A stretch of DNA of 64,000 bases from an uncultured Solirubrobacterales bacterium (lineage in GTDB: Bacteria; Actinomycetota; Thermoleophilia; Solirubrobacterales; JBBDJG01). Below the pieces are notes generated by a model, which worked only from the letters and a program-made list of their open reading frames with translations, ran no database searches and was not told where the DNA came from. Shown in pieces: positions 31,436 to 35,621 of this stretch. Both the position numbers and the translations under genes were made by a program. Position 1 is the first letter of the stretch. Each line of letters opens with the position of its first letter. The stretch spans positions 1,014,119 to 1,078,118 of the forward strand of contig OY970293.1 of assembly GCA_963716195.1 (NCBI GenBank), in the 5' to 3' direction.

Positions 31436-33475
31436 TTTCACCGTCAAGATATGAAGGGCATACGGTGGATGCCTTGGCACCAGGAGCCGAAGAAGGACGT
31501 GGACGGCTGCGATAAGCCACGGTGAGGCGCTGAACAGCCTTTGACCCGTGGATGTCCGAATGGGGAAACCCGGCGCTGGTAATGCGGCGTCATCCCGTGC
31601 TGAATACATAGGCACGGGAAGGCAAGCGGGGGAAGTGACACATCTCAGTACCCCGAGGAAAGGAAATCAACCGAGACTCCCTGAGTAGTGGCGAGCGAAA
31701 AGGGAATAGCCCAAACCCGGCAGGTGTAAGCGGGCACGCGTTGCCTGCTGGGGGTTGTAGGGCGTCTGTTCCGGGCTGTGCCTGGCCCGGCGGGAGTTAC
31801 AAAGTCATGCGCTAGCCGAAGCACGTGGAACCGTGCACCACAGAGGGCAATCGTCCCGTAGGCGAAAGTGTGTGACCTCCCGCAGATGTCCCTGAGTAGG
31901 ACCGTGCCCGTGAAACGCGGTCTGAACCTGGGGGGACCACCCTCCAAGGCTAAGTACTCCCTGGTGACCGATAGCGGACTAGTACCGTGAGGGAAAGGTG
32001 AAAAGTACCCCGGAAGGGGAGTGAAATAGTACCTGAAACCGTGTGCCTACAAGCGGTCGGAGCACTTCGGTGTGACGGCGTGCTTTTTGCAGAACGAGCC
32101 GGCGAGTTACTCGTCTGTGGCGAGGTTAAGCGATGAGCGGAGCCGTAGCGAAAGCGAGTCCGAACAGGGCGAATCAGTCGCAGGCGGTAGACCCGAAACC
32201 GAGCGAGCTACCCATGGGCAGGTTGAAGCGGGGGTAAGACCCCGTGGAGGACCGAACCGACCTAGGTTAAAAACTGGGCGGATGACCTGTGGGTCGGAGT
32301 GAAAGGCTAATCAAGCTCGGAGATATCTGGTTCTCTCCGAAATATATTTAGGTATAGCCTCCGGTTATTGCGTAATGGCCGTAGAGCACTGCTTGGACTA
32401 GGGGCCCTACCAGGTTACCGAATTCAGGCAAACTCCGAAGACCATTATGTGAATCCGGGGAGTCAGTCCGTGGGGGATAAGCTTCACGGTCGAGAGGGGA
32501 ACAACCCAGACCACCAGCTAAGGTCCCTAAGTGCTAGCTAAGTGGGAAACGATGTCTGAATGCTCAGACAACCAGGAGGTTGGCTTAGAAGCAGCCACCC
32601 TTTAAAGAGTGCGTAACAGCTCACTGGTCAAGTGTTCGGGCGCGGACAATGTAACGGGGCTCAAGCTAGCCACCGAAGCTGTGGGTTCGGCGATCCTTCG
32701 GGATCGTCGAGCGGTAGGAGAGCGTTCTGTTGCCAGCGAAGCGGCGGCGTAAGCCAGCCGTGGAGGCAGCAGAAGTGAGAATGCCGGCATAAGTAACGAA
32801 AGAGGGGTGAGAATCCTCTCCGCCGATTGTCCAAGGTTTCCTGAGTAAAGCTCGTCTGCTCAGGGTCAGTCGGGACCTAAGGCGAGGCCGAAAGGCGTAG
32901 CCGATGGCCAACGGGTTGATATTCCCGTACCACGTCACATCCGTTTGACCGATTGGGGTGACGAGGAAGGGTAGGGGAACCCAGGCGATGGTCGTCCTGG
33001 GGTAAGCGCGTAGCTAGCGGCCGTAGGAAAATCCGCGGTCGTGTTGATGCGAGGCGCGATGCCAGCTGGCCGAAAGGCCGGCGAGTCCCCGAACCCATGC
33101 CTCCGAGAAAAACCTCTAGGGAGGATGTGCGTGCCCGTACCAAAACCGACACAGGTGGACAGGCAGAGAATGCCAAGGCGATCGAGATAACCTTCGTTAA
33201 GGAACTCGGCAAATTAGCCCCGTAACTTCGGGAGAAGGGGCGCCCCGGTAGGGTGAAGCCACTTGCTGGCGGAGCCCGAGGGGGCCGCAGTGAAAAGGCC
33301 CAAGCGACTGTTTACCAAAAACACAGGCCTCTGCTAAGTCGTAAGACGACGTATAGGGGCTGACGCCTGCCCGGTGCCGGAAGGTTACGCGGAGGTGTTA
33401 GCCGCCCTTCGGGGTGGCGAAGCACCGAAGCTAAGCCCCGGTAAACGGCGGCCGTAACTATAACGGTCCTAAGGT

Positions 33476-34245
33476 GATGGAAATCGTTGCCCCTTGTCAC
33501 AGTAATGTGACAAGTGCATCTGGCTATATGCTGGAAAACCCGAGTATCCGTCCGGTACTCGCCCTAAGGTGATTCCTCTAACCAAGGAGGGTTGCCGGTG
33601 GGCAGTGACAATCCGGACGGTGCGGAAAATCAGCAGGAAAGGCTGATCAAGCTAGGTTGGGTTATTGGTTTTGTAGACGGAGAAGGATGCTTCTCAATCG
33701 GCTTCGTCCGGCAACCCTGTCGGACCCGCCGGAAAGGCTACAGAGCCGGCTATCAGGTGTTCCATCGATTCGTGGTCACGCAAGGTGCTCGTAGTAAGGC
33801 CTGCCTCGAGGACATAAGAAGCTTCTTCGGGGTCGGCAATCTTTACGAGAACAGGCGACACGATAGTCATCGAGAGCATCTGATCCAGTACCACGTGAGC
33901 CGTCGAAAGGACCTCCTGGGAGTGATCATTCCGTTTTTCCGGGAGCACCCACTTCGGAGCTCAAAGCAAAGGGACTTCGAGACCTTTGCGCGGTGCTTGG
34001 AGATCGTTGAAAGCGGGCGGCATTTGAGCTCTGAAGGGCTCATAGAGATCGCTGTCCTCGCAGAGACGATGAACCGTCAAAAGCCCAGAGGTGACTTGAT
34101 CAGAATCCTCAGAGGCCATACGCCAGGCACCCTGGACACTGGGTGAAGAGATGGTCCCTTCTGCATGGCGACATGCAGGGATGGCGCAGTGCGGCTAGAG
34201 GATGTGCCGTCCGTCTAACAGAAGTGACACGTTAGGCAAGACTAA
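33476..34245 (+). mobile_element. Homing-endonuclease-bearing intervening sequence (group I-like intron) at 23S position equivalent to E. coli U1931|A1932
   Basis: It separates ...TAACTATAACGGTCCTAAGGT from AGCGAAATTCCTTGTCGGGTAAGTTCCGACC..., which are contiguous in E. coli 23S. It contains a LAGLIDADG ORF and two GNRA-capped hairpins (33493-33514 loop GTAA; 34161-34178 loop GCGA). It is visibly more AT-rich than its flanks. The last nucleotide is A, not G. Confidence 0.8.
33592..34146 (+). CDS. LAGLIDADG-family homing endonuclease, single-motif (homodimer-type, I-CreI/I-CpaI-like)
   Basis: Motif LGWVIGFVDGEGCFSI near the N-terminus and family-typical downstream pattern (LIQYHVSRRKDLLGVIIPFFREHPLRSSKQRDFETFARCLEIVESGRHLSSEGLIEIAVLAETMN). 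SD AAGGAGG lies at 33584-33590. GTG 33598 (7-nt spacing) is a better start than the TTG 33592 used by the track. Confidence 0.85.
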   Translation: MPVGSDNPDGAENQQERLIKLGWVIGFVDGEGCFSIGFVRQPCRTRRKGYRAGYQVFHRFVVTQGARSKACLEDIRSFFGVGNLYENRRHDSHREHLIQYHVSRRKDLLGVIIPFFREHPLRSSKQRDFETFARCLEIVESGRHLSSEGLIEIAVLAETMNRQKPRGDLIRILRGHTPGTLDTG

Positions 34246-34815
34246 AGCGAAATTCCTTGTCGGGTAAGTTCCGACCTGCACGAATGGCGTAACGACTTGG
34301 GCGCTGTCTCAACGAGGGGCTCGGTGAAATTGTAGTCTCGGTGAAGATGCCGAGTACGCGCGGCAAGACGGAAAGACCCCGTGAACCTTTACTACAGCCT
34401 GATATTGGAGTCTGGGGCATCTCGCTCAGGATAGGTGGGAGGCTTTGAAGCAGTGGCTTCGGCTGCTGTGGAGCCAACCTTGAGATACCACCCTTGATGT
34501 TCTGGGCTTCTAACACCTCACCGTGAAGCCGGGAGGTGAACAGTGTCAGGTGGGTAGTTTGACTGGGGCGGTCGCCTCCTAAAATGTAACGGAGGCGCCC
34601 AAAGGTTCCCTCAGCACGGTTGGAAATCGTGCGTAGAGCGTAAAGGTATAAGGGAGCTTGACTGCGAGACTGACAGGTCGAGCAGGTACGAAAGTAGGGC
34701 TTAGTGATCCGGCGGTTGCAAGTGGAAGCGCCGTCGCTCAACGGATAAAAGGTACTCCGGGGATAACAGGCTTATCGGGCCCAAGAGTCCACATCGACGG
34801 CCCGGTTTGGCACCT

Positions 34816-35121
34816 CAACCATGGGGTGAGCCAGTCGAAATACTGGCTTTAGCATCGGCTAATAACGGTGGAGCCCACCTGCCTGTGCGTTTAGAACGAC
34901 GCGAAAAGGATGGGTAATACCGTGGGAAGTCTGTCGGAAGGGAAGACCATTAGAAGCGTCCCTCCGCAAGTGACCCCGTAACGACTGAGGCACTCGGTGC
35001 CGAGGTGGCGATCCTGCTCCAAAAGGGGCAAATCCTGGACGCCACAATACGCCGACCCCTCGCCTTTGGTCAGGCAGGGTGAAGTTATAGTCTGCGCCAC
35101 CGGTAACGGTGGAATTACGTG
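34816..35121 (+). mobile_element. ORF-less group I intron at 23S position equivalent to E. coli U2500|C2501
   Basis: The 5' exon ends in U (34815) and the intron ends in G (35121). P1 pairs CACCU (34811-34815) with GGGUG (34824-34828), with a U.G wobble at the splice site. An R-like element ACGACTGAGGCACTCGGTGCC lies at 34981-35001, an S-like AAGTTATAGTC at 35082-35092, and a GNRA-capped hairpin CCACCG-GTAA-CGGTGG at 35097-35112. Confidence 0.85.
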
Positions 35122-35621
35122 CGATGTCGGCTCGTCGCATCCTGGGGCTGAAGCAGGTCCCAAGGGTTGGGCTGTTCGCCCATTAAAGCGGTACGCGAGC
35201 TGGGTTCAGAACGTCGTGAGACAGTTCGGTCCCTATCTGCCGTGCGCGTTGGAGAGTTGAGGGGAGTCGTCCCTAGTACGAGAGGACCGGGATGAACGGA
35301 CCGCTGGTGTATCTGTTGTCCTGCCAAGGGCACTGCAGGTTAGCTACGTCCGGACGGGATAACCGCTGAAGGCATCTAAGCGGGAAGCCCACCTCGAGAT
35401 GAGCTCTCCCATCCCCTTGAGGGAGTAAGACCCCTGGTAGACCACCAGGTTGATAGGCCGGATGTGTAAGCGCAGCAATGTGCTCAGCAGACCGGTACTA
35501 ATGGGTCGAGGGCTTGACGGATATTTTTTGCTCTTGTCCTGTGCCAACTGTGCAGTTTTGAGGGTTCGGGAGAGGCCGCCGGTGCGTCGGAAGCGGTTCG
35601 CCGGGCCGACGTGACAACAGT

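Follow-up and report, generated by a model that had tools for sequence, protein, structure and literature searches.

Is a 23S rRNA gene (rrl) which is interrupted by two insertions still functional, and is it the only copy that its host possesses? The question is raised by a stretch of DNA of 64,000 nucleotides (nt; hereafter the window) from an uncultured Solirubrobacterales bacterium (assembly GCA_963716195.1, contig OY970293.1), in which the 23S gene is 4080 nt long compared with the 2925 positions of the Rfam model. On balance, we consider it probable that the locus is the functional 23S gene of a Thermoleophilia-like actinobacterium, probably its sole one, which lies in a normal operon and carries two mobile group I introns. 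In the most likely reading, the gene works, has no second copy beside it and depends on the removal of both introns.

Integrity of the 23S gene

The 4080 nt consist of 3004 nt of exon (2034 + 570 + 400) and two insertions. Based on the alignment to the rrl gene of E. coli (L001), the first is found 3' of U1931 (33476-34245) and the second 3' of U2500 (34816-35121); they are referred to here as L1931 and L2500. When the gene was compared by BLAST with its 23S counterparts in two related intron-less genomes, the match broke at 33475/34246 and 34815-16/35122, in agreement with the E. coli alignment, and in both of these genomes the exons are contiguous at the two insertion points. A preliminary description of this locus had given the extent of the gene (31442-35521), its length and its exon content of about 3004 nt, and these proved exact by Rfam, the E. 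coli alignment and BLAST. It had also placed the insertions at two of the most sensitive sites of the 23S rRNA. L2500 is indeed located in the central loop of domain V, the peptidyl transferase centre (PTC); for L1931, the 'bridge B2a region' is an approximation, the site lying 7 nt 3' of helix 69.

When both insertions are removed in silico, the universal sequence is regained at both sites, and identity to E. coli over positions 1900-1970 is complete (71/71). Concerning the key functional nucleotides, 49 positions which span helix 69, the PTC, the A and P loops, the sarcin-ricin loop and the GTPase centre were compared, and 48 of them are as in E. coli, the sole difference being U2586C. Exon identity to the intron-less relative L002 is 90-95%, compared with ~93% for the 16S gene, so there is no accelerated decay; identity to L003 is within a few points of this, where the L003 locus covers the gene. 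At positions conserved between E. coli and the relatives, changes private to the window were found at 55 of 2024, as against 24 of 1993 for L002. The excess fits a position of the window as outgroup to the compared relatives, to which L002 is more closely related than the window is; the private changes avoid the functional core, only U2586C affecting any of the 49 key sites.

The three rRNA genes of the operon (16S, 23S and 5S) are all present, co-oriented on the + strand and each full-length, according to the Rfam scan of the window. Two boxA-like motifs, CUUUGAAAACU and CCUUGAAAACU (29402-29413 and 31396-31407), have a common core which precedes both the 16S and the 23S gene; the leader motif is presumably a boxA, a label which we base on its likeness to Gram-positive rrn leaders. 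The 23S gene is enclosed by a processing stem of ~90 bp with an RNAduplex energy of -118.3 kcal/mol, compared with -57.8 +/- 5.3 for 200 shuffles (minimum -75.5). For the stem flanking the 16S gene the corresponding values are -95 and -84 +/- 6 kcal/mol, which is not significant. The operon would be transcribed as one precursor, in which RNase III would cut the long stem flanking the 23S rRNA.

The gene therefore looks functional as far as its sequence can tell, and a 23S pseudogene was rejected on the basis of the 48 matching functional nucleotides, the intact processing signals and the location of the private changes outside the functional core. The preliminary description had likewise held that the operon is not a decaying pseudogene; this is borne out by the exon identity, the functional nucleotides, the 23S processing stem, the boxA-like motifs and the terminator, and degenerative mutations elsewhere in the copy, which it had named as contrary evidence, were looked for and the changes found spare the functional core. 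Among the flanking elements which it had listed as intact, the 16S and 5S genes, the boxA-like motifs, the 23S stem and the terminator are present, while the 16S stem did not stand up to the shuffles.

Two group I introns

Both insertions match the Rfam model Intron_gpI (RF00028) over its full length, L1931 with 26.0 bits (E = 2e-4; an ORF (open reading frame) insertion of 550 nt sits within the model) and L2500 with 29.9 bits (E = 5.5e-6, model positions 1-253). In the L1931 intron, P1 is formed by GGU↓GAU and GUUGCC (the arrow marks the splice site), where U1931 and the guide sequence form a U.G wobble, and P10 by AGCGA of the 3' exon and UCGUU of the guide sequence. P7 (GGCCAU/AUGGUC) shows changes from G.U to A-U and from C-G to U-A across an alignment of 10 L1931-family sequences with the ORF removed (A2), and its top G-C pair, which we take to be the guanosine-binding position as in other group I introns, is invariant. 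The homologues were obtained from the loci reached through endonuclease homologues and from the L2500 loci. The helices in A2 are P2, P7, P8, P9, P9.1 and P9.2, with compensatory changes in 31 of the 57 predicted pairs, and all 10 sequences retain a P10 with the canonical 3' exon (AGCG), by means of the guide variants CGUU, CGCU or GCU. Based on these features, the L1931 insertion is assigned to the group I introns as a ribozyme core with an atypical 3' end.

The gene within this intron encodes a protein which matches Pfam LAGLIDADG_1 with 66.8 bits (cut-off 23.1, E = 3.5e-18) and contains a single motif, LGWVIGFVDGEGCF, whose acidic D is aligned with FVDGEG/FVDAEG of I-PanMI. The protein aligns with each half of the I-PanMI/I-OnuI family structures (E ~1e-33). 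Among the matches listed, out of 4483 at E <= 1e-3, P0001 has the identical sequence, and the other 119 share 69-80% identity with the protein of the window; in the same list, most homologues are found on metagenome contigs of ~1 kb. At its 3' end the ORF reaches into the ribozyme core, passing through P7, P3' and P8. By its reading frame the endonuclease gene is intact, and its product is predicted to be a homodimer-type LAGLIDADG_1 enzyme; L1931 alleles without the intron which enter by DNA transfer would be cleaved by it, and the intron would so be copied into them. A GHRLOS match in Rfam within the gene was treated as chance.

An 11-mer, CCUAAGGUGAU, spans the 5' splice junction (33468-33478) and is found again at 33563-33573, 95 nt into the intron, where it precedes the ribosome-binding site of the endonuclease gene by ~25 nt; the chance expectation is 0. 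In L137 the internal copy also matches the first bases of its own intron (GGUGAC), and the fit in L139 is poorer. The internal copy could be a processing site which frees the endonuclease mRNA, or a coincidence.

The L2500 intron has its P1 in CACCU↓CA/UGGGGUG, with the U2500.G wobble, which all 28 family members share unchanged (alignment A1, RNAalifold). Its terminal G35121 stands directly 5' of C2501. The homologues were gathered from metagenome contigs with a pattern requiring a G directly before the 3' exon sequence from position 2501, which yielded at least 120 loci, so the terminal G (omega G) throughout the family is no independent test; in most of these loci the insertion lies between U2500 and C2501. 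The family of the window starts with CAAC..UGGGGUG and ends with CCGCCGGUAACGGCGG..ACGYG. The core segments and P1 do not vary in A1, and none of the invariant columns is lost in the window. RNAalifold gives P1, P2, P3, P4/P5, P6, a hairpin at the P7.1 position, P8, P9 and a P9.0-like pairing before the terminal G, with compensatory changes in 28 of 60 predicted pairs (in P2, P3, P4/P5, P8 and P9); the P7 strands (CGACU/AGUC), a pseudoknot outside the RNAalifold model, are invariant.

Some relatives of this intron are ~810 nt long. They contain ~530 extra nt between positions 125 and 148 of the window intron, and these encode a LAGLIDADG_2 protein of ~190 aa (in L065, Pfam PF03161 with 126 bits). 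The ORF begins inside the ribozyme core (AUG GGU AAU ACC GUG GGA AGU C...) and ends with ...PQVTP*; the full ORFs compared (L065, L082, L012 and L061) share the C-terminus KLPQVTP. The window retains an in-frame remnant of 23 codons, which points to an internal deletion of the endonuclease gene. Frameshifted LAGLIDADG_2 ORFs were observed in L079, L120, L008, L070, L035, L021 and L078; taken together, the remnant and the frameshifted ORFs read as a natural series of decay and loss of the endonuclease gene. On sequence grounds the L2500 insertion is a group I intron, an endonuclease-less derivative of a family which carries LAGLIDADG_2, and after the loss of the gene it would persist as a ribozyme alone. 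A second, unrelated-looking L2500 family starts with UAAC..AUUGGGGCGCC and ends with CGACAG; it is present in L007, L009, L010, L033, L049, L052-L054, L076, L088, L102, L115 and others.

In the proposed pathway each intron would fold as a group I ribozyme, and free guanosine would attack after U1931 and U2500, at the U.G wobbles of P1. The freed 5' exon would attack the 3' splice site, aligned by P10 (and also by P9.0 in the L2500 intron). Ligation would regain ...CCUAAGGU-AGCGAAAUU... at the first site and ...GGCACCU-CGAUGUCGG... at the second.

The 3' end of the L1931 intron and other points against splicing

Several observations weigh against the splicing of both insertions. Both Rfam scores lie under the gathering score of 50, which is a property of the RF00028 model and not a definition of the group I class, and P10 of the L2500 intron comprises only ~2 bp. 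The sub-threshold scores would suit a different origin, in which RNase III cuts the insertions out as intervening sequences (IVS) and the ends stay unjoined, or the assembly is chimeric, and/or the gene is a pseudogene. IVS elements replace the loop of helix 9, 25 or 45, are bordered by a long inverted repeat and are not followed by ligation (PMC4990558); the insertions in the window are at sites 1931 and 2500, and both have covarying group I cores. Also, the L1931 intron is present at the syntenic loci of independent assemblies (L004 and L005), the exon junctions are exact and the functional nucleotides intact. We consider this origin highly improbable, and it is largely refuted.

The other points concern the L1931 intron, which ends with ...CAAGACUAA↓AGCG. 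Its last base is A34245 and not the omega G, there is no G among its last 3 nt, and the boundary cannot be shifted, the intron ends sharing no base with the exons. In the subfamily to which it belongs (16 distinct sequences: L004-L006, L013, L017, L039, L093, L114, L126-L130 and L137-L139), the last base varies: 6 members end in G, 4 in A, 4 in U and 2 in C. For a second L1931 subfamily the count of terminal Gs is 5 of 8 sequences, and for control L1951 introns, taken from the same loci and delimited by the same exon-anchor method, it is 18 of 18 distinct sequences. Of the close relatives, three (L126, L138 and L139) have a terminal G and one (L137) an A; L126, whose host is the nearest to that of the window (79% identity in the endonuclease and 99% in exon 2 over the 125 nt covered), ends with ...CAAGGCUAG. 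Canonical second-step chemistry is doubtful for the L1931 intron on this comparison, and the ligation of its exons, with A instead of G as the last nucleotide, is the weakest step of the proposed pathway.

A (U/C)AAG(G/A)(C/U) motif is found throughout the subfamily 3' of P9.2, followed by 2-5 variable nucleotides; the motif resembles positions 1926-1931 of the 23S rRNA. No consistent pairing partner was obtained with RNAduplex for the variable 3' tail; in some members only, its last 3-4 nt are able to pair with P9.2, on the 3' strand of that helix. Boundaries which would provide a terminal G were considered, namely shifted splice sites, an L1925/L1926 reading, the G of the AAG in the tail, and G1933. 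They were rejected because the conserved rRNA would be altered or the length of the insert would be variable, and because P10 points to A1932.

The terminal A of the window and the distribution of the last base (6/16, as against 18/18 in the L1951 controls) would be expected if splicing at L1931 were incomplete. The intron would then be kept in the mature 23S rRNA, or only the 5' cleavage would take place, giving pieces 1-1931 and 1932-end after nuclease trimming, with L2500 still being spliced. The terminal base seems to be unconstrained, members with a non-G end retaining intact endonuclease genes and cores (e.g. P0080/L130, found on 7 contigs). At the same site, an intron in Simkania is said to be unspliced, to judge by the title of a report by Everett from 1999. 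However, conservation extends to P1 with its U.G wobble, to the guanosine-binding G-C pair of P7 and to P10 with the 3' exon; the changes which do occur, one-sided or in register, preserve the pairing. Such conservation, of P10 above all, is hard to explain unless ligation of U1931 to A1932 is selected. An insert of 770 nt beside helix 69, at the subunit interface, should also be very disruptive, as a matter of general knowledge. Incomplete splicing thus appears unlikely.

Since P10 to A1932 is conserved, we prefer the reading that the L1931 exons are still ligated and that the requirement for the terminal base is relaxed. For the family as a whole, in which the core, P1 and P10 are fully conserved and the last nucleotide is unconstrained, we offer as a tentative idea, more doubtful than probable, that ligation takes place without omega G by means of P10 and the (U/C)AAG(R)(Y) tail, or else that the sole 23S rRNA either keeps the intron and still functions, or functions in two pieces with the break at 1931/1932. 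To judge from its homologues, the L1931 family is widespread in soil actinobacteria and other bacteria.

Copy number, distribution and known systems

A 29-mer from a variable 23S helix matches two species-representative genomes, once each; these are metagenome-assembled genomes labelled uncultured Thermoleophilaceae and uncultured Actinomycetes. In the relative L002 the single match is in a contig of 3.58 Mb, and no other contig of the assembly matched. The gene order PBP, tyrS, rrn, ..., isocitrate/isopropylmalate dehydrogenase is common to the window and L002-L005, of which L002 and L003 are intron-less species-representative loci, while L004 and L005 are metagenome contigs which have, of the pair in the window, the L1931 intron only. 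The shared synteny and the single matches indicate that the operon of the window is the ortholog of an apparently single rrn locus in the lineage, and we think it likely, with good confidence on these genomic comparisons, that its rrl gene is the sole copy in the genome.

The closest comparators have only ~93% 16S identity and thus belong to another genus, which leaves some room for a second, intron-less rrl gene that supplies most of the ribosomes, with the interrupted copy tolerated and not essential. This we regard as distinctly improbable: it is opposed by the single match in L002 and the orthology of the locus, any intron-less copy which shared the cell with an active L1931 endonuclease should be converted by it, and the exons and processing signals show no relaxation.

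Concerning the distribution of the introns, that at L2500 is absent from all nine relatives which cover the site (L002, L003, L004, L005, L127, L129, L131, L138 and L139); in all but L003, exon 2 is 90-95% identical to that of the window. The L1931 intron is found in seven of the nine, often together with an L1951 intron 20 nt further downstream, so that relatives have no intron, L1931 alone, or L1931 and L1951. Among the matches listed, the exon 2 sequences of the hosts which carry the nearest L2500 homologues are only 86-90% identical to that of the window. Given this and the absence from the lineage relatives, the L2500 intron looks to have been acquired separately and horizontally. Also among the matches listed, ~9 of the 21 L2500-positive loci which cover both L1931 anchors have an L1931 insertion as well, which suggests that rrl genes with more than one interruption occur commonly among environmental bacteria. 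The preliminary description had invoked homing into all copies; if there is one copy, this is moot, and the relevant spread would be between cells, which fits the patchy distribution among relatives.

Group I introns at L1951 were observed in L004, L129-L132, L134, L135 and L137-L140, and also in L011, L013, L022, L028, L045, L051, L112, L117 and L119. They are ~260-340 nt long without an ORF or ~690-770 nt with one (in L140, 256 aa, LAGLIDADG_1). The window has no L1951 intron.

The coordinates of all features are presented in Table 1. A simple sigma-70 scan gave no promoter, and no tRNA genes are found in the window. Between the end of tyrS (29144) and the leader boxA-like motif, a terminator-like hairpin with a U-run is located at 29334-29357, which may be the tyrS terminator or an element inside the rrn leader. 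Compared with E. coli, the 23S gene has small expansions of 77 nt after position 285 (window 31729-31805, domain I), 9 nt after 1404 and 10 nt after 1868. Most Actinobacteria have an insert of ~100 nt in domain III of the 23S rRNA; no large insertion was seen in this domain in the E. coli alignment. An ORF of 204 aa (35627-36241, +) begins within the 5S gene, and its matches in relatives are limited to the 25 codons which overlap the 5S gene; it is most likely not a gene, on this pattern of matches. A c-di-GMP-II riboswitch match in exon 2 (34429-34502; Rfam 19 bits, E = 1.2) was treated as chance.

Table 1. Coordinates of the rrn operon, the 23S exons, the introns and their genes in the window
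Feature	Position	Strand	Description
Leader boxA-like antitermination motif (UCUUUGAAAACU)	29402-29413	+	16S leader; read from the sequence
16S rRNA gene	29652-31201	+	Rfam RF00177, 1600 bits, model positions 1-1533, full length
23S processing stem, 5' strand	31340-31436	+	Includes the second boxA-like motif (31396-31407)
23S rRNA gene	31442-35521	+	Rfam LSU_rRNA_bacteria, 2683 bits, model positions 1-2925, untruncated
23S exon 1	31442-33475	+	E. coli 1-1931; 3' end ...CCUAAGGU; U1931 and the intron guide sequence form a U.G wobble
Group I intron at L1931	33476-34245	+	770 nt; last nucleotide A; boundaries set by intron-less relatives
Homing endonuclease gene	33598-34146	+	182 aa, GTG start; ribosome-binding site AAGGAGG at 33584-33590
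23S exon 2	34246-34815	+	E. coli 1932-2500; 95.1% identity to L002 and L003 (both intron-less)
Group I intron at L2500	34816-35121	+	306 nt, no endonuclease gene; terminal G35121 (omega G)
LAGLIDADG_2 remnant	34910-34981	+	In-frame, 23 codons: first ~10 and last ~5 codons, overlapping the ribozyme core
23S exon 3	35122-35521	+	E. coli 2501-2904
23S processing stem, 3' strand	35527-35617	+	RNAduplex pairing with 31340-31436
5S rRNA gene	35623-35739	+	Rfam RF00001, 105.4 bits
Intrinsic-terminator-like hairpin	35748-35783	+	11 bp, 7 G-C pairs, then UCUUUGG; hairpin with U-tract at 35748-35773; starts 9 nt past 5S

Among the known systems, Coxiella burnetii has a single-copy rrn operon with two group I introns in the 23S gene, both of which are spliced (PMC4990558). 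The Coxiella introns slow the growth of E. coli when expressed (Raghavan 2008, as cited in PMC4990558), which is the published form of the idea in the preliminary description that intron removal is coupled to growth. The sites differ, being 1917/1951 (domain IV) in Coxiella and 1931/2500 in the window, as do the hosts, an obligate intracellular gammaproteobacterium and an environmental, apparently free-living, high-GC actinobacterium; also, a helix-45 IVS was not seen in the window, unlike in Coxiella. What the two have in common is a pair of 23S group I introns of which one is without the canonical omega G; in Coxiella this is Cbu.L1917, which is reported to splice nevertheless (the missing omega G according to the title of Raghavan 2007). 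The endonuclease gene lies in the L1951 intron in Coxiella (Haugen 2007 table) but in the L1931 intron in the window.

L1931 introns with single-motif LAGLIDADG genes are known from Simkania, Thermotoga and Synechococcus; the same source describes three introns in one large-subunit (LSU) gene of Synechococcus C9, and cyanobacterial rRNA intron ORFs, such as that of Synechococcus L1917, which extend into the ribozyme core (PMC1995217). These L1931 introns share with that of the window the site, the single-motif LAGLIDADG gene and an ORF running into the core. They have endonucleases of 143-167 aa and lengths of 654-700 nt, compared with 182 aa and 770 nt in the window; the likeness is one of description, and the phylum differs. 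The Thermotoga introns are reportedly self-splicing, as a paper title has it.

In bacteria of the candidate phyla radiation (CPR), many 23S group I introns are found at 1917, 1931, 1952, 2593 and other sites, with LAGLIDADG_1 dominant, variants with and without an ORF at one site, and a clustering around the PTC (Tsurumaki et al. 2024, PMC11270868). The host of the window is not a member of the CPR, and site 2500 is not named in the text and supplement of that survey. Group I introns at rrl_2500, in the PTC loop, are present in green-algal chloroplasts (PMC4877394); the insertion site is shared with the window, but these introns are organellar and the likeness extends to the site alone. Our literature search found no report of a bacterial L2500 group I intron, nor of 23S group I introns in the phylum of the window.

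If the operon is the sole one, every ribosome of this bacterium would depend on two ribozymes, one beside helix 69 and one inside the peptidyl transferase loop, and an environmental high-GC actinobacterium would join a short list which comprises Coxiella, Thermotoga, some cyanobacteria and the CPR. The metagenome survey indicates that such introns are far commoner in environmental bacteria than the cultured record suggests, and that site 2500, for which the literature found describes only chloroplast cases, is heavily used there. It also yields a clean natural series of gain, decay and loss of endonuclease genes. The absence of the terminal G in the L1931 family would be a concrete, testable departure from a rule which holds for group I chemistry almost universally.

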